Below, one piece after another: positions 1 through 10,401 of a stretch of 10,401 bases of DNA. Within the stretch, counting starts at the first letter, position 1; each line of letters opens with the position of its first letter. Under the pieces are notes generated by a model. It made no database searches. It was not told the origin of the DNA and saw only the letters and a list, made by a program, of their open reading frames with translations. A program made the position numbers and the translations under genes. Origin of the DNA: Candidatus Heimdallarchaeota archaeon (GTDB lineage Archaea; Asgardarchaeota; Heimdallarchaeia; Heimdallarchaeales; Heimdallarchaeaceae). The stretch spans positions 1 to 10,401 of the forward strand of contig JAAFKJ010000132.1 of NCBI GenBank assembly GCA_021399395.1, in the 5' to 3' direction.

Positions 1-1395
1 ATTGACTATAGAAATTGCTTTTTCAATCAGATCTTGTTTTCTTTCGAGAACATAAGGGTCCCAAATCATCGCGGGTTGACCTTCAAGACATTTTGCAATT
101 ACTTGCTTGGCTATTTTGCAACTTTCAATCACATTCTCAGGAGTAGCAGCATGATTTGCTTCACTATAGCTTACAACATGAACAATATGTGGATTAAGTT
201 GCATCTGCAACATTGTTGATTGAGCTAGTTGCCCTTTCGCCATATCAAAATCTATAGGATAGCTAAATAAGCCCGTTCTTGTTTGAGTATAAACAGTAAA
301 ATTTTCATCTTGCAGAGATTCAATCATCTCTTTTTGAGCTAGCATCTTTGCCAAATCATCTCTCTGATTTGTTTGAGGAGGAGTATTAAACATATATTGT
401 GAGAAAAAATTTCTTACACCCAATTTTTTGCATATATCAGCACCCAAAAATCCTGATGCTATTGCTACTTCATCCTTTGCATCTCTCAATGACCAATGAT
501 GTGATTCAAGAATCTCAACAGGAATTTCTTTTTCAGCATACCATTTTATAGCATCAAGATGAGACCGTATGGAAGATTCTAACTCCATTGGACCTCTTCC
601 ATCCATTTGATTAAACCAAAAAATAGGTATTGCAGCCCAAGCATTATCTATTGTATCAACATAAAGCTCAGCTAATTCAACCAAATCATCTGTTCCTGCA
701 TAAGTTCGCATTAATGGAAAATTTCCAAATCTTGAAGCCTTAAAAAGTTGTACAAAATCCTCTTTTGTTCGAACAGGAACACCCCCCGCACCTTTTCCAG
801 AACTCATTCTTTCAGGATGGAAGAAGTGTGCTTGAGCATTTTGGTCAGTTCCTAAAGAAATAACATCAAGACATTTACTCTCAGCAATTTTCTTAATTCC
901 CTTAGCTGTTTCGTTTAAAGTAGGTAATCCAAAATGATGTCTTAAAACTGGAAAAGGATATTTAGAGTCTATCCTTTTAATGATATTTTGATGAGGTACC
1001 AGATATTTATCTTTCACAACTACTCCTTTAAGATAAGAAATAGCTTGTTCAGCATCATCACCTTGAAAATAAGCACTAAAGAAACCTTCTTGTTTTTCAC
1101 TCTGAACAAGTTCTGGTAAACCTCCTAGAATAAATTCTCTTTCCTGTAATCCTTCTTCTGTAATTCTTCTTTTTATTTTTCTAAGAATTTCAATTCCTGT
1201 CTTAGGAGTTAATCTATAACTCAAACCTACTACATCAGGATTATGTTCTCTAATTGCTTCAATGAGTTGGTCAGTATCTACAGCAGGACCCAAAAATATT
1301 GTTTCATAATGCTGATTTTCTGCTATTTTCAAGAATCTATGAATTCCAGCAATATGAACGCAATCACCAATGCAAGCTCCTAGTATTTTTTTCAT
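1..1395 (-). CDS. Cobalamin-dependent protein: N-terminal B12-binding domain fused to a glutamate mutase E-like TIM barrel (3' end runs off the window)
   Basis: Translated by hand: ATG at 1395, 465 codons with no stop to position 1, which is why the ORF track misses it. Begins MKKILGACIGDCVHIAGIHRFLKIAE. C12-x-H14-x-x-G17, 41 residues, S59-Y-R-L, then G91-G92 follows the DxHxxG-x41-SxL-x26-28-GG base-off/His-on motif with substitutions. Downstream segments (PVLRHHFGLPTL, DVISLGTDQNAQ, GGVPV, SYPIDFDMAKGQL, HIVHVVSYSEANHAATPE) occur in the same order as GlmE segments recalled from memory. Confidence 0.85.
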   Translation of the reverse strand, partial: MKKILGACIGDCVHIAGIHRFLKIAENQHYETIFLGPAVDTDQLIEAIREHNPDVVGLSYRLTPKTGIEILRKIKRRITEEGLQEREFILGGLPELVQSEKQEGFFSAYFQGDDAEQAISYLKGVVVKDKYLVPHQNIIKRIDSKYPFPVLRHHFGLPTLNETAKGIKKIAESKCLDVISLGTDQNAQAHFFHPERMSSGKGAGGVPVRTKEDFVQLFKASRFGNFPLMRTYAGTDDLVELAELYVDTIDNAWAAIPIFWFNQMDGRGPMELESSIRSHLDAIKWYAEKEIPVEILESHHWSLRDAKDEVAIASGFLGADICKKLGVRNFFSQYMFNTPPQTNQRDDLAKMLAQKEMIESLQDENFTVYTQTRTGLFSYPIDFDMAKGQLAQSTMLQMQLNPHIVHVVSYSEANHAATPENVIESCKIAKQVIAKCLEGQPAMIWDPYVLERKQDLIEKAISIVN

Positions 1396-1401
1396 CCTAA
1401 C

Positions 1402-2508
1402 TCATCTAGCTGCTGTTTTGTATTCTGTAATTTTTTCTAGTTTAGACACCGCTTTTAGATCTTCAAATATTGTATTAGCGTGAAGTCCTAACCTGTACAA
1501 ATTTCTTCCTTTACTTCTAAAATCAACCTTTAGCTCATTTGATGCTTTGTTTATCAATTCATCAGTATAGCTTGTATCAACATCGACAGATTTACCAAGT
1601 TCAGAAAAGGGAACAAGACCTGTAGGGATGTCTTCTGTTAAATATCTCATATCAAAAGTTGTAGGAGCTACCAATCCTGAATAGAAAGGATTGTTGTGTA
1701 AAGCATCAAAAAGATTAGTGTCTGGAAGACTATATCTCTCACATAACCACTCTCTAATTGATTGAACTTCTACTCCAAACTTTCTTGCTATATTTCGTCT
1801 TTCACTATCAACTTGTTCCATATAGTCGACTACTTCCCTTGTAGCTCCGTCTTTGTAAAAATCAAATGCTTCTTTCTTCTTTATTCTCTCTTTATTCAAT
1901 AGTGTTATTGTTGGATGGAAAACTGCCCCAATATTTCCTAAACTTGTTTTTAAGAAGTTCTCAACTGCATAGAATTGAGGATAACTTTCATTTAATTTTG
2001 AAATTACATGAGATGTACGATGATTAGGTATAACTGATACAGATACAGATTTCTTGATACCTTTAATATCACTTAATCCAGGTCTTATGGTTCTCGTAGC
2101 ATATATCAATGTATTAGCTTCAGCTACAGTTACATCTGCATCCAAACCACCTTCCAGAAGAGCATTCATAAATTCTAGAATCCCAAAAGTTCTTCCAGGA
2201 TTTAAGACAATTATTTGACCCTTTCTAAGATGAGGTGCTAATGCAGTTGCTATATCATAATGTCCAGTAGCAGTAGTTACTACCATTATTAATTCTGTTC
2301 CATTTATAGCTTCTGAAATATCGGTAGTTACTAGATTTAGCTTCCCTTTTGATTGTACTTCGCCTATTAATTCAATTTCTTTATTGTTCAAAAGTAGACG
2401 GACTCTTTCCAAAGATCTATTGTATAGATTTACTTTATTTCCTTTACTTGCTAGAAATCCTGCAATTGCATGACCTCCACACCCAGCACCAATTATTGCG
2501 ATATTCAC
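1402..2508 (-). CDS. NAD(P)-dependent opine (octopine/nopaline) dehydrogenase family protein
   Basis: 368 aa, GTG start with GGTGA RBS at 2513-2517. Rossmann motif IAIIGAGCGG, VLNPGRT, family His motif NIGAVFHP and C-terminal RYLTEDIPTGL, as in Arthrobacter-type N-(1-carboxyethyl)-norvaline dehydrogenase. Confidence 0.92.
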   Translation of the reverse strand: MNIAIIGAGCGGHAIAGFLASKGNKVNLYNRSLERVRLLLNNKEIELIGEVQSKGKLNLVTTDISEAINGTELIMVVTTATGHYDIATALAPHLRKGQIIVLNPGRTFGILEFMNALLEGGLDADVTVAEANTLIYATRTIRPGLSDIKGIKKSVSVSVIPNHRTSHVISKLNESYPQFYAVENFLKTSLGNIGAVFHPTITLLNKERIKKKEAFDFYKDGATREVVDYMEQVDSERRNIARKFGVEVQSIREWLCERYSLPDTNLFDALHNNPFYSGLVAPTTFDMRYLTEDIPTGLVPFSELGKSVDVDTSYTDELINKASNELKVDFRSKGRNLYRLGLHANTIFEDLKAVSKLEKITEYKTAAR

Positions 2509-2639
2509 TTAATCACCCACTTAGGGTTAAGTGAGTGAGGTGATTCCGTTTTAAACGCTATTTTTCTCGTAACAAAGTGGTGTTGACAAACTAATTTTAA
2601 ATTAAAGTTGCTTTCTCTGTTTTTTGTTTCTTCATACAT
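2505..2639 (-). CDS. Putative 44-aa leader peptide (uORF)
   Basis: MYEETKNRESNFNLKLVCQHHFVTRKIAFKTESPHSLNPKWVIK*. AGGTGA RBS at 2645-2650 lies 5 nt before the ATG. The TGA (2505-2507) overlaps the GTG (2506-2508) of the dehydrogenase gene as GTGA. Absent from the ORF track, probably because of its length. Confidence 0.6.
   Translation of the reverse strand: MYEETKNRESNFNLKLVCQHHFVTRKIAFKTESPHSLNPKWVIK
2513..2538 (-). promoter_or_regulatory. RBS-sequestering hairpin upstream of the opine dehydrogenase gene
   Basis: The mRNA strand reads TCACTCACTTA-ACCC-TAAGTGGGTGA: an 11-bp stem (10 Watson-Crick pairs and one U-G) with a 4-nt loop. The 3' arm contains the GGTGA RBS. The wobble pair forms only on the minus (mRNA) strand. 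Confidence 0.7.
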
Positions 2640-3014
2640 TTTTTTCACCTATTTTCTTTATATCATAGTAATAATGGCTTGTTAAGAATCACTCCTGAAG
2701 TTTCAAGGAGGAAACAGTTCTAAGTAAATAGAGTAGTTTTTGATATTTATATACCAAACAAAGCCAATTTTCGATAGAGATTCTATTATTATAGTTCCCA
2801 ATCGAGCATTATAGTTAGTCAAACAGTTAATAAATCGTATCTTTAAATAGTTATTCTTTTATTAGTCTATATTTGAACAAATACTTATAAGTAGAAATGA
2901 TAAACCATATGTTAAATCCATTATTAATTAAATCAAAGTATAAATAATATATTGTTTTCAATAGTGATTATCATAAAGAAACACTTGAGTTATGAAACTT
3001 TTTTTTCATTTAAT

Positions 3015-3033
3015 CGTAAAAAATCTTTTAAAA
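3015..3033 (+). promoter_or_regulatory. Candidate archaeal BRE/TATA promoter for the MttB-family gene
   Basis: An A-rich run CGTAAAAAA followed by TTTTAAAA (3026-3033), 48 nt before the ATG. The AT-rich context makes chance matches likely. Confidence 0.3.
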
Positions 3034-3081
3034 TGCTAGCTTATTACATACATAATTGACTAATTATCTGAGTTAACAATT

Positions 3082-4530
3082 ATGAGACCTGTTATCAATA
3101 TTCTTGAAGAGGAACTAAAGGAAAAAGTTGTAATTGAAGCAATGGAAATCCTAGAAGAAATTGGGTTTTTTGTTGAAAATAATGAAGCTATTAAGATTCT
3201 ACAAACTGAGGGAATTGATATAGATTTAGAAGAAAAACGTGCAAAACTTCCACGCGATTTAGTTAAGAAAGCATTGAAAAGTGCTCCACCCTCTATTCCG
3301 CTCTTTGATAGAGAAGGTGATTTAGTAACAAAACTTGAGGGAGATAATATTTGCTTCGATCCTGGTTCAGCAGCCTTGAATGTTTTAGATCCAGAAACCA
3401 ATGAAATAAGATCAGCTATTACAAAGGATTTTGTTGATTTCACCAAGGTAGTTGACCAACTTGAACACATTCATGCTCAAAGTACAGCAATAACTTGTTC
3501 AGACGTCCCTGCAGAAATAGGTGATAGATATAGGTTACTGATTACTTTATTATTTTCAAGGAAACCAATTGTAACGGGAACCTTCGCAAAGGAATCATTT
3601 GAAGTTATGAAAGATATGCTTATAGCAGTAAGGGGGAGTGAAGAGGAACTCAGAAGAAAGCCTTTAGCGATATTTGATGCATGTCCTTCACCACCATTGA
3701 AGTGGAGTGATTTAACATGTCAGAGTATTATTGATTGTGCAAAATATGGAATACCTTCAGAATTTGTATCAATGCCTATGACTGGAGCTAATGCACCTGT
3801 TACTATACTTGGAGCAATAGTTCAACATGCTGCAGAAACATTAGCTGGATTAGTAATAACTCAACTTGTATCACCTGGAGCGCCTGTAATATGGGGTGGT
3901 TCGCCTGCAGTTTTTGACATGCGAAAAGCGACAACACCCATGGGTTCTATTGATACAATGATACTAGATTTAGGGTATGTTGAAATCGGTAAATATCTCA
4001 ATCTACCTACTCATGCTTACTTGGGAATGTCAGATACAAAAATACTAGACATGCAATCAGGATTTGAATCCGGTATGGGGGCACTTCTTGCTGGTGTTAA
4101 GGGAGTAAACATGATATCAGGGGCAGGTATGATTGATTTTGAGACAACTCAAAGTATTCAGAAAGTTGTAATAGACAACCAGATGATTGGGATGATTTAC
4201 AAGTTCAATAAAGGGATAATCCAGAGAGATGAGCCAATTGCTAAGAATTTACTAATTGATTTAGAAGAGAAAACGCATCTACTTTCTCATGATCATACTT
4301 TGAAATGGTTCCGAGAAGAGCACTTCATCCCGAACAAAATCATAGATAGGTCCACTAATGAAGAATGGATAAACACAGGAAGAAAAAACGTCAACCAAAG
4401 ATCAAAGGAAGAGGTTGATAAACTCCTGAACAAGTATTCTGGTGTTTCTCTCGAAAAGGATGAAGTTTCTAGTTTGATAGATATAATGAGCTACAAAAAA
4501 ATTGATTTTAGAAAAAGATTGAATCTGTAA
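3082..4530 (+). CDS. mttB: Trimethylamine:corrinoid methyltransferase (MttB) superfamily protein, non-pyrrolysine type
   Basis: 482 aa with family motifs ILEEIG, ALKSAP, CPSPPL, MPMTGANAPVTILGAIVQHAAETLAG, PGAPVIWG, DMRKAT and SDTKILDMQSGFE. There is no in-frame TAG, and Met316 occupies the site equivalent to pyrrolysine. The symbol denotes family membership only; the substrate is unknown. Confidence 0.93.
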   Translation: MRPVINILEEELKEKVVIEAMEILEEIGFFVENNEAIKILQTEGIDIDLEEKRAKLPRDLVKKALKSAPPSIPLFDREGDLVTKLEGDNICFDPGSAALNVLDPETNEIRSAITKDFVDFTKVVDQLEHIHAQSTAITCSDVPAEIGDRYRLLITLLFSRKPIVTGTFAKESFEVMKDMLIAVRGSEEELRRKPLAIFDACPSPPLKWSDLTCQSIIDCAKYGIPSEFVSMPMTGANAPVTILGAIVQHAAETLAGLVITQLVSPGAPVIWGGSPAVFDMRKATTPMGSIDTMILDLGYVEIGKYLNLPTHAYLGMSDTKILDMQSGFESGMGALLAGVKGVNMISGAGMIDFETTQSIQKVVIDNQMIGMIYKFNKGIIQRDEPIAKNLLIDLEEKTHLLSHDHTLKWFREEHFIPNKIIDRSTNEEWINTGRKNVNQRSKEEVDKLLNKYSGVSLEKDEVSSLIDIMSYKKIDFRKRLNL

Positions 4531-4560: not shown

Positions 4561-4573
4561 AAAGGTTTTATAT
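4561..4573 (+). promoter_or_regulatory. Candidate BRE/TATA promoter for the surface protein gene
   Basis: AAAGG followed by TTTTATAT (4566-4573), about 31 nt upstream of the ATG at 4605. It overlaps the ORF-track start at 4572, which argues that 4605 is the real start. Confidence 0.5.
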
Positions 4574-4604
4574 GGCATTCAACCTAAATTATTATTGTGA
4601 TTCA

Positions 4605-6470
4605 ATGAAAATAAGAAAACAAACACAATTAGCTTTACTTACATTGGTTATGCTTTTGACAACTACTTTATCATCAGTATCCATTGGTAGAGCTCAAGAA
4701 AATAACGGAAGGGTCAACTATCAAATGAACTACACAGAAAGTGTTCCGTTAATAATAACAACCAATTCTGATCTCGTTGGAAATGCTTCCTCTGGTGATG
4801 GCTCTCCTGGTAATCCTTACATATTAGAAGATTTAAACATAACAACAACCGGAAATTATGCTATTTATATAGAAGGCACTACTAGTAATTTTATAATAAG
4901 AAATTGTCTTCTGATTGCAAACATAGCTGCAATTCACATCCAGGATGTTACTGCTAATACTGCAGATATTACAAACAACATTCTGAAAGGTGTAAATAGA
5001 GCAATTCGAATTGCTAATACAGACTATGTGAACATAACAGACAATATTTGTTATGAGAGTTCTGATGGGATGTATTTACATGATTCTGATTATCTATATT
5101 TGGAAAATAACACAATCTATGGAGGAGCAAATGGAGTCTATGCAGAGACATGCAATTACTGTAATTATACTTCCAATATCGGTTATTCAAATAGTCAATA
5201 TGGATTATACATATACAGTAGTAATTTCAATTATTTAATCAATAACACTTGCTACGGCAACACTCGTTCGGGTATTTATTTGAGTTATACTGTAGGTTCA
5301 TACGTAGCAGAGAATGAATGTTATAGTAATAACTATAGTGGAATTTACGTCCTAAATGGAGATTCTGGCACTATAGAATTTAACAATCTACACAATAATA
5401 ATAGACATGGTATAAGAGTTCAGGGTGCAGATTCTTTTTCTGTTGTGAACAATACTTTAAATGACAATGACTGGCATGGAATTTTTAATGACAATGCGGC
5501 CAATACTATTATTGCAAACAATACTGCAATTAAAGATGGTTTTGGTATATTTGCTTCAAGTCAGTCAGCTTTTACTAATTTAGTTGTTGAAGACAATATT
5601 GTAAACGGTAAACCTTTAGGGCTATTATATGGTTTAGGAGAGGTAATACTAACTCCAAATGTTTATGGTCAATTAATCTTAGCATTTTGTTCTGGAACAA
5701 CTGTACAAGACTATACTATTCATGATACAAGCATTGGTCTAATTATGCAGGGGTGTGATTCAGTAATAGTAAATAATTGTGATTTCGATGATAACAACTA
5801 TGGAAGCATCCTTGATCATTCTTCAATGAACCTTCAAATTTCAAATACAAAATGCAGTTTCAATGAAGAATACGGCGGCATATACAGCATTGGTTCTATG
5901 AATACTACAGCCTACAATTGTACAGCAAACAACAATCAATTTGGGATATTTTTCTTAGGTAATAGTGCATTCAATGTAACAGATTGTACAAGCAATTTCA
6001 ATTCTTGGTACAACACCCGCTTTCAAGGTGGCGCAGCTGGTAACATCAGACATAATGAAATTTCCCACAGTTCAAATGTAGGAATGTTACTCTACAATTG
6101 TGATTATACAAATATATCATATAATTTCTTCGAGAACAATATTGGTTATGCTATTTACTCGGATGGTGGTTCTATGTTTAATTGGATTCATCATAATGCT
6201 TTCATTAGCAATAATGGTGGTAATACCCAAGCTTATGATGACTCCTTGTTGAACATGTGGGATGACCCGTGGAACACTGAAGGAAACTATTGGGACGATT
6301 ACGGAGGTACTGGCAATTATACTTTAGATGGCATTGGTAATGCAAATGACTCATTTCCATTAGGTGAGATTCCTCCAGGAATACCAGAATTTGATAATCT
6401 AAAATACCTCATTCTATTAGTACCTGTAGTATTCATTTGCTTATCATTAATTCGAAGAAGAAGGAAATAA
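4605..6470 (+). CDS. Secreted parallel beta-helix (NosD/PbH1-type) cell-surface glycoprotein with PEF-CTERM sorting signal
   Basis: Signal peptide MKIRKQTQLALLTLVMLLTTTLSSVS; GDGSPGNPYILEDLNI motif; many N-N-x-x-G-I-Y-L-type turns; GNYWDDY near the C-terminus; ends IPEF, hydrophobic helix, RRRRK. The ORF track starts at 4572; 4605 is preferred because it puts the signal peptide at the N-terminus. Confidence 0.88.
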   Translation: MKIRKQTQLALLTLVMLLTTTLSSVSIGRAQENNGRVNYQMNYTESVPLIITTNSDLVGNASSGDGSPGNPYILEDLNITTTGNYAIYIEGTTSNFIIRNCLLIANIAAIHIQDVTANTADITNNILKGVNRAIRIANTDYVNITDNICYESSDGMYLHDSDYLYLENNTIYGGANGVYAETCNYCNYTSNIGYSNSQYGLYIYSSNFNYLINNTCYGNTRSGIYLSYTVGSYVAENECYSNNYSGIYVLNGDSGTIEFNNLHNNNRHGIRVQGADSFSVVNNTLNDNDWHGIFNDNAANTIIANNTAIKDGFGIFASSQSAFTNLVVEDNIVNGKPLGLLYGLGEVILTPNVYGQLILAFCSGTTVQDYTIHDTSIGLIMQGCDSVIVNNCDFDDNNYGSILDHSSMNLQISNTKCSFNEEYGGIYSIGSMNTTAYNCTANNNQFGIFFLGNSAFNVTDCTSNFNSWYNTRFQGGAAGNIRHNEISHSSNVGMLLYNCDYTNISYNFFENNIGYAIYSDGGSMFNWIHHNAFISNNGGNTQAYDDSLLNMWDDPWNTEGNYWDDYGGTGNYTLDGIGNANDSFPLGEIPPGIPEFDNLKYLILLVPVVFICLSLIRRRRK

Positions 6471-6559: not shown

Positions 6560-7558
6560 ATGGATGAAGAATACGTTAAGAACAATATGGACCCCTTCTT
6601 TACGGCAATTGAGAGAAAATATACAGGTCCAGTCTTTGACGCTCACACTCATCTTGGTAAAGTTGAAGATGTAGCAACTATGGCCAAGTATGAAAAAGAA
6701 TTCAATGTTAAGAAAATCTTTGGGATAGTTCGTGATAAAAAAAGCAGAGATGCCATTGAAGAAGCTTTTCCTGACCTTTTCGTTTATTCTATTTTCCTTT
6801 CCATTAGAGAAGCTTTACAAGACGATATCAAAGGGTCCATGGATTTCCTAGAAAAGGCTTACGCAGATGGATTCAAAATCGGTAAGCTTTGGTTCTCGCC
6901 AAGATGGGTCAATTACTTTAATAGAGATGACATGAAAGTTGAATTTCGTAGTCAGGATGTACATTTAAATGACCCCAAACTTGAACCTATATTTCAGAGA
7001 TTAGATGAGCTTAAGTTTACATTACTTCTACATGTTAGTGACCCTGATCTTCTATATTCGAAGAACTATCAACCTTCCAGTAAGTATGGTGTTAAAGAGA
7101 ATCACATTAATGCCCTTAAGAACATTCTAGAATGGTATCCTAATATCACAATTATTGGAGCTCATATGGCCAGTCAACCAGAAAACCTCAAACAGTTGGA
7201 TTCTTGGTTAGATAAATACCCCAACCTCTATGTGGACACAGGCTCAGCTAAATGGATGGTCAGGGAATTTGGTTCCAAAATCGATGAAACTCTGGAGTTC
7301 TTCAAGAAGCACCAAGATCGCATAATGTTTGGTACTGATTTTGTTGCTGGGCGAGGAGATAGAGAACCCATTCCAGGATATTACATTAACCGCTTTCTTA
7401 GTTTTCAAGCACTTTTCGAAACCAATGTAAGAGACTTACCATTTCCAATTCCTGACCCCGAGAATGATAACAAGACTAAAATCAATGGATTGGATTTACC
7501 TCAAAATATTCTGAAGAAGTTATATTGGGAGAATGCCAACAAGATATATAATCGATGA
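6560..7558 (+). CDS. Metal-dependent amidohydrolase superfamily protein (Amidohydro_2-like)
   Basis: 332 aa with the ordered motifs DAHTH, LLHVSDP, GAHMA, NLYVDTGS, RIMFGTD and the C-terminal KLYWENA. Substrate unknown. Confidence 0.9.
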   Translation: MDEEYVKNNMDPFFTAIERKYTGPVFDAHTHLGKVEDVATMAKYEKEFNVKKIFGIVRDKKSRDAIEEAFPDLFVYSIFLSIREALQDDIKGSMDFLEKAYADGFKIGKLWFSPRWVNYFNRDDMKVEFRSQDVHLNDPKLEPIFQRLDELKFTLLLHVSDPDLLYSKNYQPSSKYGVKENHINALKNILEWYPNITIIGAHMASQPENLKQLDSWLDKYPNLYVDTGSAKWMVREFGSKIDETLEFFKKHQDRIMFGTDFVAGRGDREPIPGYYINRFLSFQALFETNVRDLPFPIPDPENDNKTKINGLDLPQNILKKLYWENANKIYNR

Positions 7559-7629
7559 TAATTTCGCTACTTAAGCAAAGAATCTTTGGAGCTTAAAAAC
7601 TTAATAATCATTAGTATACTATGTGTCTT

Positions 7630-8073
7630 ATGCGTGCGGTCTTTCTTGCAGCTATTATACCAAAAACTGGACCTGAAGTTGTACTTTTACATCCAGAAGA
7701 TTTCCTTTCAAAGGATGAATTTGAAGAACTTTCTCTCAAGTGCATGCCTATGGGAAGCAAAGAAGGAGACTTCTCATCTGTTGTTTTCAATGGTTATCAA
7801 GTTGCAGGATTTCTTACCAGTACTCCACCTATTGATGAACAATTAGACCCTCGAGACACAATAGTATCAATTGGTTTTTTGCTAGATACCTATACCAATC
7901 CTATTCCTTACAGAAATTTACTAATGGATTTTGTAGCTAAGTGTGGGAAAGATGAATCATTCAATCTTTCAACATTAAAAGAGGTAATTCCAGAATTTCT
8001 TAGATTAAAAGATGAAAAGGATATTAGAATTAAAATGAAAGATGAATTGGTTTGTGAGCTTTCTTTGAAATAA
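7630..8073 (+). CDS. Small protein with probable longin/uDENN fold (NPRL2/DENND11-like)
   Basis: Pattern AVFLAAIIPKTGPEVVLLHPEDFLSKDEFE...KCMPMGS...DF...IVSIGFLL...Y matches the strand-GP-strand-P-helix start of uDENN/longin domains. The ORF track starts at 7621; 7630 fits a leaderless transcript from AAAAAC-TTAATAA (7595-7607). The CDS itself is well supported and the fold call moderately so. Confidence 0.65.
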   Translation: MRAVFLAAIIPKTGPEVVLLHPEDFLSKDEFEELSLKCMPMGSKEGDFSSVVFNGYQVAGFLTSTPPIDEQLDPRDTIVSIGFLLDTYTNPIPYRNLLMDFVAKCGKDESFNLSTLKEVIPEFLRLKDEKDIRIKMKDELVCELSLK

Positions 8074-9891
8074 CTATATTAACTCAGCAGCTTGTTCAAC
8101 ATATTCTAATGATTGATGTCTGAAATACATATCGTAAAGTTTCCAGTATTTTCCTTTCTTATCCATAAGCTGTTGATGATTACCTTCTTCAACGATATCA
8201 GCATCATCGATGACAATAATTCTATCTGAGTTTTCTACAGTTGTTAAACGATGGGCAATAATTATAGCTGTTCTGTCCTTGAGTAACACCTTAAGAGCTT
8301 CTTGAATAAGAGATTCTGTATAAGCATCTATTGCAGCTGTAGCTTCATCTAAAATCAGTATTTTAGGATCAGAAAGTAGTGCTCTTGCAAAGGCAACAAG
8401 TTGCTTCTGGCCAGCTGATAGTTTTGTCCCTTTTTCTCCCACTTCTGTGTCTAGTCCTTTTGGAAGGCTTTGTATGAATTCCCATGCATAGACTGCTTTA
8501 GCTGCTTTTACTACTTCTTCTCTTGTTGCTTTGAGTTGTCCATATCGGATATTTTCTTCAATAGACCCACTAAACAGGATGTTATCTTGTAACACTACGC
8601 CTATTTGATCGCGATAGTCTTGAAGCACATACTTACGAATGTCTGTTCCATCAACAATTATTGCTCCCTTTTCAACATCATAGAATCTAGCAAGTAAAGA
8701 CACTAACGTGCTCTTTCCTGCCCCCGTTCTTCCAACAATTGCTACAGTCTGTCCAGCTGGGATTGACAGTGTAAAATCTTTGTACAGAGGTTCAGAAGGA
8801 TTATAGTAAAATGTCATATCATTGAAATCGATTTTTCCTTGGAGTTCTGGAACTAAAACAGGGTTAAGATCCTCTACGACAGATGGTTCACTATCCATCA
8901 AACTGAAAATCCTTTCAACAGCTGCTAATCCAGCTTCAAATTGATTGAAGAATCTTGTTATTTCTAATAACGGCATAAAGAATCTATTAAGCATAAGAAC
9001 GAAGAAATAGAGAGTTGCAACACTGATATCTCCAACTGTAAATGCTATGTTTCCACCATAATAGAGAACTAAGAATGTACCTACGCCAAACAGAGTTTCA
9101 ATAATTGGGAAGAATATACTCATTCCCCAAGCTCTTACATAAGCAGCTCGGTAATTTCTCATATTGATCCCTTTGAATCTTTCGAATGCTTCTTTTTCCT
9201 GATTGAAGCTTTTTGTGACTTCAATTCCTGAGATTGATTCTGCCACATTAGCATTAACAATAGCTATGGTTTTTCTCCAGTTTTTTGAGGTTCGACGTGA
9301 GAATAAACGAATTCCTATACCTAGTCCAAATAGTACTGGAACTACTGCTAAAGTAATTAAAGCTAAACGAACATCAGTTACAAACAAGATTATTAGAACC
9401 GCTATCATAACTAAGATGTTAATTAAGAATGATGTAGTTATTTGAACCATTTGAGAGATTGTGTCAGAATCACTGGTTACTCTACTTACTAATTTTCCAC
9501 TCTTATTTTCATCATAAAATTTCATGTCATTTCTTAGAAGAGTTTCGAAGCTGTCTTTTCTTACCCTTCTGAGCATTTCTCCTGTTAAGATTGAAGTGTT
9601 ATATAATGCTCTATATTGTGCAAGCCAGAAGAAAGCATAAAGAACTATGATTGCAGCTGTTTCAACATAAAATACAACGTTGAATACACCATTTTGAACG
9701 CCTTCGATTACAAATTTTATGAAAAATGGAACACCTATTGTTGCAGCTGTTTGGAGAATCATCCACATTAGAACGGTTAAGAATGTTTTCACATCATGCT
9801 TTGCAATATACCCAAATAGACGTTTAAAGAGATAGATGTCACCGTACTTTCTATCATATTTGTCGTCTGGCAGTTCTTGTATGAATCCCAT
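8074..9891 (-). CDS. ABC exporter half-transporter (TMD-NBD), TM288-type subunit of a heterodimer
   Basis: 605 aa. N-terminal transmembrane domain, Walker A GRTGAGKS, Q-loop VLQD, signature LSAGQKQ, Walker B ILILDE, switch IAHR. RBS GGAGGGTGA lies within the end of the upstream gene. Confidence 0.95.
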   Translation of the reverse strand: MGFIQELPDDKYDRKYGDIYLFKRLFGYIAKHDVKTFLTVLMWMILQTAATIGVPFFIKFVIEGVQNGVFNVVFYVETAAIIVLYAFFWLAQYRALYNTSILTGEMLRRVRKDSFETLLRNDMKFYDENKSGKLVSRVTSDSDTISQMVQITTSFLINILVMIAVLIILFVTDVRLALITLAVVPVLFGLGIGIRLFSRRTSKNWRKTIAIVNANVAESISGIEVTKSFNQEKEAFERFKGINMRNYRAAYVRAWGMSIFFPIIETLFGVGTFLVLYYGGNIAFTVGDISVATLYFFVLMLNRFFMPLLEITRFFNQFEAGLAAVERIFSLMDSEPSVVEDLNPVLVPELQGKIDFNDMTFYYNPSEPLYKDFTLSIPAGQTVAIVGRTGAGKSTLVSLLARFYDVEKGAIIVDGTDIRKYVLQDYRDQIGVVLQDNILFSGSIEENIRYGQLKATREEVVKAAKAVYAWEFIQSLPKGLDTEVGEKGTKLSAGQKQLVAFARALLSDPKILILDEATAAIDAYTESLIQEALKVLLKDRTAIIIAHRLTTVENSDRIIVIDDADIVEEGNHQQLMDKKGKYWKLYDMYFRHQSLEYVEQAAELI

Positions 9892-10401
9892 CTAATCACC
9901 CTCCGGATATAGTTCTGTTAGCATCTGATCAGGCATCATTTTTCTTATTTCTGAAAATCGTGCAAATACTCTCCAATAATCAACAGATTCTTTGAGGAGT
10001 TCTTCATGTGAACCAATAGCCTTGATTTCACCTTGTTTAAGTACAATAATAATATCAGAATGTCTGATAGTTGAAAGTCTGTGTGTAATAATGAAACTAG
10101 TTCGATCTTTCAAAACTCTGTTAATAGCTGTATTAATTTTATCTTCAGTTTCTGAATCAACAGCTGAACTAGCATCGTCAAAGACCAATATTTTTGGATT
10201 AGCTAACAACATTCTAGCTATTGCAACTCGTTGTTTTTGCCCTCCACTTAAGGTAGTACCACGCTCACCTACTACAGTCTGATATCCTTTGTCAAATTTG
10301 ATTACAAACTCTTCAGCTTGAGCCATCCTTGCAGCTGCAAATACTTCTTCATCTGTAGCTTCAGGCTTACCATAGGATATGTTCTCTTGAATTGTTGCAG
10401 A
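9892..10401 (-). CDS. ABC exporter half-transporter, TM287-type subunit (only the C-terminal NBD part is in the window)
   Basis: The frame stays open beyond the ORF-track start at 10326 to the window edge (SATIQENISYGKPEATDEEVFAAARMAQA...). Signature LSGGQKQR, degenerate Walker B ILVFDD, D-loop SAVD, switch ITHR. Confidence 0.93.
   Translation of the reverse strand, partial: SATIQENISYGKPEATDEEVFAAARMAQAEEFVIKFDKGYQTVVGERGTTLSGGQKQRVAIARMLLANPKILVFDDASSAVDSETEDKINTAINRVLKDRTSFIITHRLSTIRHSDIIIVLKQGEIKAIGSHEELLKESVDYWRVFARFSEIRKMMPDQMLTELYPEGD

Follow-up and report, generated by a model that had tools for sequence, protein, structure and literature searches.

A putative one-chain B12-dependent mutase and its opine-dehydrogenase-type partner: a gene pair conserved in Heimdallarchaeota and bacteria, with a possible role in stress-linked biosynthesis

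The window analysed in this work is the whole 10,401 nt stretch of contig JAAFKJ010000132.1 from a Candidatus Heimdallarchaeota archaeon (GCA_021399395.1). Its left part carries two genes on the minus strand which constitute a conserved pair: a gene for a putative one-chain B12-dependent mutase-like protein (1-1395) and an opine-dehydrogenase-family gene (1402-2508) whose 368 amino acid product resembles N-(1-D-carboxyethyl)-L-norvaline dehydrogenase (CENDH). The first was recognised as an open reading frame (ORF) and the second as an ORF with the Pfam domain Octopine_DH. Read from the letters, the junction of the two genes is ...GCT AGA TGA gttagg ATG AAA..., the spacer gttagg (1396-1401, minus strand) leaving a gap of exactly 6 nt between the dehydrogenase stop and the mutase start. 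On the other side of an AT-rich intergenic region of 573 nt (2509-3081) lies, on the plus strand, an ORF of 482 amino acids with the Pfam domain MTTB, encoding a non-pyrrolysine methyltransferase of the MttB superfamily (3082-4530). The original prediction had placed the three genes in this way, with 6 nt between the dehydrogenase and the B12 gene and MttB divergent across the shared upstream region, and the sequence confirms the arrangement. Its B12 gene is present at 1-1395 but is incomplete: the left edge of the window truncates the 3' end after 465 codons and, as full-length relatives have 504-511 amino acids, about 39 codons lie outside. The stretch from 1 to 4508 is collinear with L001, a locus of a Heimdallarchaeota metagenome-assembled genome (MAG), at 87% nucleotide identity.

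Co-occurrence of the dehydrogenase and the mutase-like gene in other genomes had been chosen beforehand as the test that could refute the pairing, and the two were found together almost throughout. One genome per species was scanned with the family alignment as query; at least 572 stretches contained a relative, and the best 80 were analysed as loci (designated by L numbers, with P numbers for single proteins). By record title five of these are from Heimdallarchaeota, one from another archaeon, six from Bacillota, two from Bipolaricaulota, two from Melioribacteraceae, one from Fraserbacteria, one from Mycobacteriales and many from Chloroflexota. ORFs were called crudely, as the longest ORFs of at least 70 amino acids after removal of overlaps, and the resulting 1013 ORFs were clustered. 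Co-occurrence was counted by TBLASTN with the window dehydrogenase and not by ORF calls, because the ORF calls missed the mutase in L018 and L020, and antisense ORFs masked some dehydrogenases. The 80 loci represent archaea and six bacterial phyla, and 75 of them contain a dehydrogenase homologue, which without exception shares the strand of the mutase gene and in 68 of the 75 is less than 400 nt from it. Since the same pair recurs to this extent in related loci, its presence in the window is not due to chance. The dehydrogenase gene lies upstream of the mutase in 16 loci (archaea, Bacillota, Melioribacteraceae and three Chloroflexota) and downstream in 59, and as both gene orders occur the adjacency must have survived rearrangement. 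An asparagine synthase gene is located between the two in three loci (L010, L016 and L070). Five loci are without the dehydrogenase; L005, L047 and L066 are cut by contig ends, while in L048 and L052 the gene is truly absent within the fetched flanks.

The two enzymes also occur as natural fusions. In L022 a single ORF of 920 residues encodes the mutase followed by the dehydrogenase; this could be an assembly variant, since the unfused P0122 (549 residues) is 100% identical across the mutase part. An independent fusion of 920 residues with the mutase likewise in front, P0121, is 55% identical and is represented by 13 member sequences. The predicted proteins P0260 and P0308 show a dehydrogenase C-terminus running into a B12 domain. 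In view of adjacency and fusions the mutase and the dehydrogenase are almost certainly functionally coupled. Comparison of the pairwise distances of both proteins in a mirror-tree gave a correlation of 0.81 for 32 pairs. Within the 21 Chloroflexota the correlation is -0.02, a value reached by 542 of 1000 shuffles, so that this test gives no signal of co-evolution past the deep phylogeny and weighs against the proposal made below. In a quick tree of the mutase the archaeal rows stand together, and the Melioribacteraceae L044 and L080 fall among the Bacillota rows, beside Thermoanaerobacter; the mutases of L044 and L080 deviate in amino acid composition. This placement hints at a lateral transfer of the pair.

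The B12 protein of the window matches the Pfam domain B12-binding with an E-value of 1.6e-11, and Met_asp_mut_E weakly, under the cut-off, with 0.0099. Its closest relative in a large protein collection is P0001 (504 amino acids, 94% identical), whose source name is 'cobalamin-dependent protein [Candidatus Heimdallarchaeaceae archaeon]'; across the family the sources use 'cobalamin-dependent protein' and occasionally 'methionine synthase'. The family is large. At 90% identity 7031 clusters pass an E-value of 1e-5 among 8000 candidates scored, and in a 50% clustering 132 representatives pass 1e-30 and 652 pass 1e-3. An alignment of archaeal and bacterial members has a mean column identity of 60%. 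B12-binding was matched in all 20 family members scanned and Met_asp_mut_E in 16 of the 20 when scanned singly (best E-value 7.9e-7), and in P0238 the latter domain passes the Pfam cut-off of 26.6 bits with 27.5 bits. NCBIfam has no family model for either the mutase-like protein or the dehydrogenase.

The fold was compared by means of an AlphaFold2 model of full-length P0001, with a predicted local distance difference test (pLDDT) of 86 and a predicted template modelling score (pTM) of 0.85, which was searched by Foldseek. In the model a Rossmann domain precedes an alpha/beta barrel of eight strands. The top matches are the E chains of glutamate mutase, 1cb7_B (E-value 8.9e-13) and 6h9e_B (1.0e-12), and the next are ornithine 4,5-aminomutase, methylmalonyl-CoA mutase, lysine 5,6-aminomutase and 2-hydroxyisobutyryl-CoA mutase. 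As modelled, the B12 protein is a single chain with an N-terminal B12 domain similar to GlmS and a C-terminal (beta/alpha)8 barrel similar to GlmE. A lookup of stored homologues with P0045 returned its own family and, as weak leads, MutL (0.78) and the glutamate mutase epsilon subunit (0.77). MutL accompanies glutamate mutase genes. In three relatives of the B12 protein, P0267 (E-value 7e-76), P0270 (2e-82) and P0271 (2e-55), MutL (PF13941) is fused to the C-terminus; these fused relatives span 826-1266 amino acids.

Among the invariant residues of the barrel are R152, R209, R230, R267, R304, R373, E294, E297 and H299. A barrel so rich in invariant Arg, His and Glu would be expected to accept a small, multiply charged substrate. 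An aminomutase dependent on pyridoxal phosphate was considered as well and rejected, since no Lys is invariant or nearly so in the B12 domain (residues 1-125). The B12 motif of the window protein is G-D-C-V-H-I-A-G, that is C-x-H-x-x-G instead of D-x-H-x-x-G. Of 235 family proteins, 229 have Cys two positions before the ligand His, 4 have Asp there and 2 a different residue, and the His and the Gly are invariant; two of the MutL-fused relatives, P0267 and P0270, share C-x-H-x-x-G. A sister group of 610-635 amino acids (P0269, P0279, P0294 and others), with 34-40% identity in the barrel, retains the canonical D-x-H-x-x-G and is extended at the N-terminus.

With glutamate mutase GlmS/GlmE of Clostridium cochlearium (1cb7, 6h9e) the family shares the barrel fold, the Met_asp_mut_E domain and a B12 domain of His-on type, and relatives of the family are fused to MutL, the partner protein encoded in glutamate mutase operons. 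It differs in being one chain where glutamate mutase is composed of S and E subunits, in an identity to GlmE of only 16-17%, in the Cys found in place of the Asp two before the ligand His, and in its gene neighbourhood, where no methylaspartase gene is found near the pair and the dehydrogenase gene is present instead. The best structural match and the MutL fusions make it likely that the B12 protein is a mutase of adenosylcobalamin (AdoCbl) type, and the label 'mutase-like' of the original prediction is borne out.

Several observations weigh against an AdoCbl mutase. Searches of PDB sequences, either with the single sequence or with a profile of 20 rows, matched only the B12 domain; the TM-score to the glutamate mutase E chains is 0.54-0.56, and 0.54 is only moderate; the canonical D-x-H-x-x-G motif of base-off/His-on binding is missing in the great majority of the family; and among the 119 same-strand neighbours scanned there is no adenosyltransferase, no MeaB-like chaperone and no MutL. 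The window likewise has no MutL gene. A different view of the B12 protein, implied by those records which name it 'methionine synthase', is that of a corrinoid methyl-transfer protein and no radical mutase. In sequence searches its B12 domain is indeed closest to corrinoid proteins of methyltransferases (4jgi in the PDB, E-value 8.8e-5; NCBIfam MtgC, with 31 bits far under the cut-off of 370), and methyl-transfer genes adjoin the B12 gene in the Heimdallarchaeota loci. The barrel, however, matches glutamate mutase E and other AdoCbl isomerases, with no methyltransferase barrel among the listed Foldseek matches, the relatives are fused to the MutL reactivase, the B12 protein lacks the cap domain (B12-binding_2), and the 80 loci have no conserved methyltransferase partner in common. 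A corrinoid methyl-transfer protein is on this evidence very unlikely.

The dehydrogenase of the window matches the Pfam domains Octopine_DH (E-value 3.9e-42) and NAD_Gly3P_dh_N (4.4e-9), carries the G-x-G-x-x-G motif (G7-A-G-C-G-G12) and aligns with CENDH of Arthrobacter (PDB 1bg6) with an E-value of 2.9e-70 across 344 residues. The window enzyme keeps the residues at the positions of H202, R292 and D297, which we take to be the catalytic residues of CENDH: H198 and R288 occur without exception in the 66 partner dehydrogenases, and position 293 is Asp in 57 and Glu in 9 of them. At the end of the second Rossmann strand CENDH, which is NADH-dependent, has Asp-Ile, whereas Asn-Arg (N30-R31) is invariant in all 66 partner dehydrogenases. 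By the usual rule this exchange suggests that the enzyme probably uses NADPH rather than NADH, which would imply the reductive, biosynthetic direction. CENDH prefers hydrophobic amino acids and has Ala at the position of R106, which at least 95% of the 66 partner dehydrogenases share and which is invariant in the 32-row alignment A4; an Arg at this position would suit an extra substrate carboxylate and hence an acidic amino acid. By its sequence the dehydrogenase is probably an imine reductase of the opine dehydrogenase type with intact catalytic residues, and a reductive condensation is predicted.

The neighbours of the pair in other genomes were annotated by a Pfam run on cluster representatives, on the neighbours in the Heimdallarchaeota loci and in L019, and on 119 of the 159 ORFs located in unbroken same-strand runs with the mutase. 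The other 40 were either covered in the Heimdallarchaeota and L019 scan or farthest from the pair, and were not dropped by content. Gene counts, given out of 80 loci, were made by BLASTP with Pfam-checked seeds. In 31 loci the pair is accompanied by one of three types of enzyme, in sets which do not overlap: asparagine synthase in 19, ATP-grasp proteins of Ddl-like type in five and of RimK/GshB-like type in one (L019), and a GNAT acetyltransferase in six. In L019 two RimK/GshB-like copies flank the pair, and a class-I glutamine amidotransferase (Peptidase_C26) comes next. P0238 (863 amino acids, 57% identical to the L001 mutase) is a fusion of the mutase to an ATP-grasp domain of the same RimK/GshB type. 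The one asparagine synthase copy scanned, a full-length protein of L070, scores 559 bits and passes the NCBIfam AsnB equivalog cut-off of 499; a shorter paralogue is without the N-terminal part.

A second group of neighbours is related to cyclic di-AMP (c-di-AMP) and to ion homeostasis. Genes for c-di-AMP receptors (PF06153) are found in 7 loci, for DUF2179/DUF5698 proteins in 10, DUF389 proteins in 7 and CBS proteins in 4, for Na+/H+ exchangers in 7, Na+/Ca2+ exchangers in 6 and CitMHS transporters (with TrkA_C) in 8, for MscS channels in 3 and for mannosylglycerate-hydrolase-like proteins in 4. An Mrp antiporter, NhaA and an amino acid permease fused to Usp were found in single loci. An Rfam run on the window and all 80 loci detected a c-di-AMP (ydaO) riboswitch directly upstream of the operon in three loci, which belong to three families of Bacillota. 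In L042 (Thermoanaerobacter) the riboswitch is at 6671-6802 (113.9 bits) and the dehydrogenase gene starts at 6904; in L034 it is at 5618-5758 and is followed by a Ddl-like gene, the dehydrogenase and the mutase; in L036 (Syntrophothermus) it is at 577-778. No riboswitch was found in the loci of Chloroflexota, Bipolaricaulota, Ignavibacteriota or archaea. The Bacillota MAG L031 has a fluoride riboswitch (6685-6746, 50.3 bits) at the same leader position as the c-di-AMP ones. According to the available text of PMC7266159, the ydaO regulon includes genes for K+ transporters, amino acid transporters, cell-wall remodelling and osmotic shock.

One possibility is a catabolic module in which the pair degrades an amino acid or an opine-like compound, by a variant of the methylaspartate route or by cleavage of an N-carboxyalkyl group, with the dehydrogenase acting oxidatively. 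The glutamate mutases known so far serve catabolism, and opine dehydrogenases can work in either direction; by their record titles the hosts are anaerobes with a fermentative metabolism, and the fold class is common to fermentative AdoCbl isomerases. Such a role does not agree with the invariant Asn-Arg found instead of an NAD-type Asp, nor with the neighbours scanned, among which there is no recurring methylaspartase, substrate transporter or other catabolic enzyme and the recurrent enzymes are ATP-dependent formers of amide bonds and an acetyltransferase. Control by a c-di-AMP riboswitch is, as far as the available text of PMC7266159 goes, not known for catabolic operons. Degradation appears unlikely. 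The catabolic order of demethylation, rearrangement and oxidative C-N cleavage put forward in the original prediction is unsupported, and the Asn-Arg signature, the biosynthetic neighbours and the riboswitches favour its second suggestion, that the locus may build an unusual opine.

Biosynthesis could also be directed to the cell envelope, the pair making an unusual (D- or branched) acidic amino acid which a Ddl-like ligase would join, and an asparagine-synthase-like enzyme amidate, in peptidoglycan or another envelope polymer. The Ddl-like ATP-grasp proteins (in L034 with 215 bits against a D-Ala-D-Ala ligase subfamily cut-off of 243) and the frequent asparagine synthase would fit this role, as would class A penicillin-binding protein genes (cluster c12), present as ORFs in four loci, and a weak match of the relative P0251 to Peptidase_M15_3 (E-value 5e-4). 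Yet the pair is present in Heimdallarchaeia and in another archaeon, the window has no such partners, and the ligase, amidotransferase and acetyltransferase sets are alternatives of each other and not fixed. Nor do the ion-transport, c-di-AMP-receptor and mannosylglycerate-hydrolase-like neighbours fit an envelope role. Cell-wall genes are themselves under c-di-AMP riboswitches according to the available part of PMC7266159, so that the riboswitch agrees with an envelope product too and is no proof of an osmolyte. Overall we regard the envelope role as quite unlikely.

We favour the reading that the pair is a stress-linked, probably osmoadaptive biosynthetic module which makes an unusual acidic amino acid or opine derivative, and give it a probability of about 0.5. 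An osmotic or ion-stress solute is the best single reading because it combines the design of a compatible-solute pathway with c-di-AMP riboswitches and receptors, cation exchangers and mechanosensitive channels. For the two components of this reading taken separately, we lean somewhat towards the biosynthetic direction, and hold the osmotic or ion-stress role to be about evenly balanced.

According to the proposed scheme the AdoCbl-type one-chain mutase and the NADPH-type dehydrogenase would act in sequence on a small, multiply charged compound resembling an amino dicarboxylate. The mutase would rearrange glutamate, or an N-substituted analogue, to 3-methylaspartate or its counterpart, and reductive condensation of the rearranged compound with a 2-oxo acid, driven by NADPH, would draw this unfavourable step towards an N-carboxyalkyl (opine-type) product. 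Glutamate is the obvious candidate substrate because of the fold, the Arg-rich pockets and the accompanying enzymes which handle Asp or Glu (asparagine synthase and the RimK/GshB- and Ddl-type ligases). The equilibrium between glutamate and 3-methylaspartate favours glutamate, and for this reason the order of mutase and then dehydrogenase is thermodynamically sensible, as the NADPH-dependent condensation would pull the reaction. In many bacteria a third enzyme, either asparagine synthase, an ATP-grasp ligase or a GNAT acetyltransferase, would modify the product, which would be a metabolically inert solute drawn from the glutamate pool and serve osmotic or ion homeostasis. Alternatively the opine may be made first and rearranged afterwards. 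That the pathway leads in exactly this form from glutamate through 3-methylaspartate to an opine is rather unlikely.

The design has precedents in the formation of N-epsilon-acetyl-beta-lysine by AblA/AblB and in the route from beta-glutamate to beta-glutamine, where a radical isomerase converts a common amino acid to an isomer that is not metabolised and a charge-neutralising enzyme then completes the compatible solute. With these routes the pair shares an analogy of design only and no homology, the charge-neutralising step being matched by the GNAT, AsnB or ATP-grasp genes of the 31 loci. The AblA isomerase is a radical-SAM enzyme, whereas the isomerase of the pair is B12-dependent and has the dehydrogenase as an obligatory partner.

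A number of points speak against an osmoadaptive module. The c-di-AMP riboswitch was found in only 3 of 80 loci, and any neighbour of ion or osmotic type in only 26, mostly from related Chloroflexota. As many loci are related Chloroflexota, the neighbour counts do not represent independent events, and they are raw counts without a background rate at random genes. The accompanying AsnB might merely make asparagine, since the copy scanned passes as an ordinary AsnB. In the window itself Rfam and Pfam revealed no riboswitch and no osmotic or ion gene near the pair. Finally, AdoCbl use, substrate, product, direction and osmotic role are all inferred. What the analysis shows is that the pair exists and is conserved, to which class its mutase fold belongs, which catalytic residues its dehydrogenase has, and among which riboswitches and neighbours it is found.

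The third gene of the original prediction, MttB, is a neighbour and no part of the conserved module. The window protein matches Pfam MTTB with an E-value of 3.5e-82 and reaches 376.8 bits with TIGR02369, the equivalog model for trimethylamine methyltransferase MttB, under the cut-off of 525. It aligns end to end with the pyrrolysine (Pyl)-containing MttB of M. barkeri (7xcl, E-value 3.5e-59), from which it differs by Met316 (ATG) at the Pyl position, and likewise end to end with the non-Pyl MtgB proteins (PDB 2qne and 9yce) at about 1e-52. As the gene contains no in-frame TAG and its sole stop is at codon 483, the designation 'non-Pyl MttB' was correct. Within the MttB genes of L001 (5270-5369, minus strand, 47.8 bits) and L002 (191-290, minus strand, 45.4 bits) Rfam reports PYLIS_3 above the gathering score of 38, and in the window MttB gene there is no match at that score. 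The matching genes have Met or Leu and not UAG at the Pyl site, and the matches probably reflect similarity of the coding sequence to mttB of Pyl type.

The three-gene pathway had MttB demethylating a quaternary or N-methyl amine, the mutase rearranging the product and the dehydrogenase cleaving a C-N bond. MttB is the divergent neighbour of the pair in the window, in L001 and in L002, and corrinoid methyl-transfer genes are located on both sides of the pair in the Heimdallarchaeota relatives. Among the 80 loci, however, a MttB homologue is adjacent only in L001 and L002, both close Heimdallarchaeota relatives with more than 80% identity, and it is for this reason that we remove it from the module; by the criterion set in the original prediction this refutes the version with three genes. 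L004 keeps the pair, at 80% nucleotide identity across it, and has an unrelated ORF of 351 residues in the place of MttB. In addition MttB has plausible partners of its own. In the region of L001 which is equivalent to the DNA left of the window (9508-12673), and from which the left flank of the window was inferred, two flavodoxin-like fragments are found on the same strand as the mutase. Beyond the mutase, on the opposite strand, L001 carries genes for a protein similar to Met_synt_B12 (the MetH activation domain), a homocysteine S-methyltransferase (S-methyl_trans, E-value 1.5e-62), a corrinoid protein of 211 residues (B12-binding_2 and B12-binding; 222 bits with the MtgC model, under its cut-off) and an HxlR regulator. 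L004 and L005 likewise have this methyl-transfer block after the pair, and L002 has the first gene of the block there. The corrinoid protein, the homocysteine S-methyltransferase and the MetH-activation-like protein to the left are probably the partners of MttB, and together they would probably constitute a corrinoid methyl-transfer system from a methylamine to homocysteine, which looks like a split, methylamine-fed methionine synthase. It would differ from non-Pyl MttB systems in that the likely methyl-acceptor enzyme in L001 is a homocysteine S-methyltransferase and not a tetrahydrofolate methyltransferase. The simplest reading of these gene orders is that in the Heimdallarchaeota lineage the pair merely lies between MttB and its partners; a pathway of the three genes is highly improbable.

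The intergenic region between the dehydrogenase and MttB genes (mean column identity 82% among the window, L001 and L002) and the adjacent dehydrogenase start show one further feature. A small ORF of 44 codons (2505-2639, minus strand) lies upstream of the dehydrogenase, its TGA stop overlapping the GTG start of the dehydrogenase gene (GTGA). In all four Heimdallarchaeota loci an ORF of 40-47 codons ends on the dehydrogenase start in this manner (GTGA or GGTGA); beside the window the positions are 6748-6891 in L001, 1676-1798 in L002 and 1996-2139 in L004. In L002 the frame is kept despite a deletion of 12 nt. The ORF may encode a leader peptide or a small protein; conservation of the frame does not prove coding because the flanking non-coding DNA is likewise well conserved. 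An Rfam scan of the window gave no family at the gathering score.

To the right of MttB the window carries further genes or ORFs. A right-handed beta-helix (NosD-like) protein of 632 residues (4572-6470, plus strand; ORF and Pfam) is hydrophobic at both ends, with an N-terminal stretch and a C-terminal anchor whose last residues are RRRRK, and in its place L001 carries a TPR protein of 649 residues. It is followed by an Amidohydro_2 protein (6560-7558, plus strand; ORF and Pfam), which is conserved in L001 with 85% amino acid identity, and by an ORF of 150 residues from the ORF list (7621-8073, plus strand) with no match in Pfam or NCBIfam and no counterpart in the 80 loci. Two tandem genes for ABC exporters of MsbA type, assigned by Pfam and NCBIfam, occupy the end on the minus strand, the first at 8074-9891 and the second at 9892-10401, where it is cut by the window end.

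The pairing as such is not undescribed, as the original prediction had supposed, since two genome papers of 2009 already noted it and left its function open in the text available of them. Zhang et al. (PMC2667541) predicted a novel B12-dependent family whose genes are 'always adjacent' to one for an octopine/nopaline dehydrogenase and have D-Ala:D-Ala ligase and asparagine synthase genes in the vicinity, and the pair Hore_09740/Hore_09750 of Halothermothrix orenii was described as a putative operon with the same pairing (PMC2626281). In their available text the two papers cover 11 bacteria from four phyla and name no function. The neighbourhood analysis presented here reproduces independently the architecture and the constant dehydrogenase neighbour of that family. 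The H. orenii 'cobalamin-dependent protein' P0045, which is 52% identical to the window B12 protein, would correspond to Hore_09750. The available 2009 text puts a 'TIM-barrel-like structure' at the N-terminus, whereas in our model the barrel is C-terminal and similar to GlmE, and members of the family are now found in Heimdallarchaeia and in several further bacterial phyla as well. As to expression, the Thermoanaerobacter dehydrogenase Teth514_2108 is up-regulated in an ethanol-adapted strain according to the accessible part of PMC3751872, and a study of hyperosmotic Thermoanaerobacterium (PMC5577258) makes no mention of octopine or cobalamin. The statement of the original prediction that no characterised pathway pairs these enzymes stands, as a literature search, with subscription journals mostly outside its scope, found no paper assigning a function to the pair.

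Since the superfamilies are known and the pairing was flagged in 2009, the pair is not categorically new. It is an uncharacterised variant, in which a one-chain relative of glutamate mutase with a Cys motif has an opine dehydrogenase as obligatory partner, and the window copy is an Asgard archaeal member of this family of pairs. To the notes of 2009 are added the GlmE-like fold, the fusions with MutL, ATP-grasp domains and the dehydrogenase, the C-x-H-x-x-G and NADPH signatures, the context of c-di-AMP and ion homeostasis, the archaea and more bacterial phyla, and the exclusion of MttB from the unit. A bolder version of our proposal, which we consider speculative and on balance doubtful, is that of a widespread pathway, so far overlooked, which would supply a compatible solute or buffer glutamate. 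In it a new class of AdoCbl mutase with a Cys-x-His motif would isomerise glutamate or an N-substituted glutamate, and a dedicated opine synthase acting as an NADPH-dependent trap would yield a new, metabolically inert imino-polycarboxylate, under c-di-AMP control in bacteria and present also in Asgard archaea. The chemistry of the pair, once solved, would add a new reaction, or at least an architecture and a ligand motif, to the few B12-dependent isomerases, and opine dehydrogenases would gain a role outside crown galls, invertebrate muscle and metallophores. The link to the c-di-AMP riboswitch makes the question directly testable in the cultivable Thermoanaerobacter and Halothermothrix. For the abundant anaerobes of sediments and digesters, such as Anaerolineae, Bipolaricaulota and Heimdallarchaeia, the pair may stand for a possible undiscovered stress solute.

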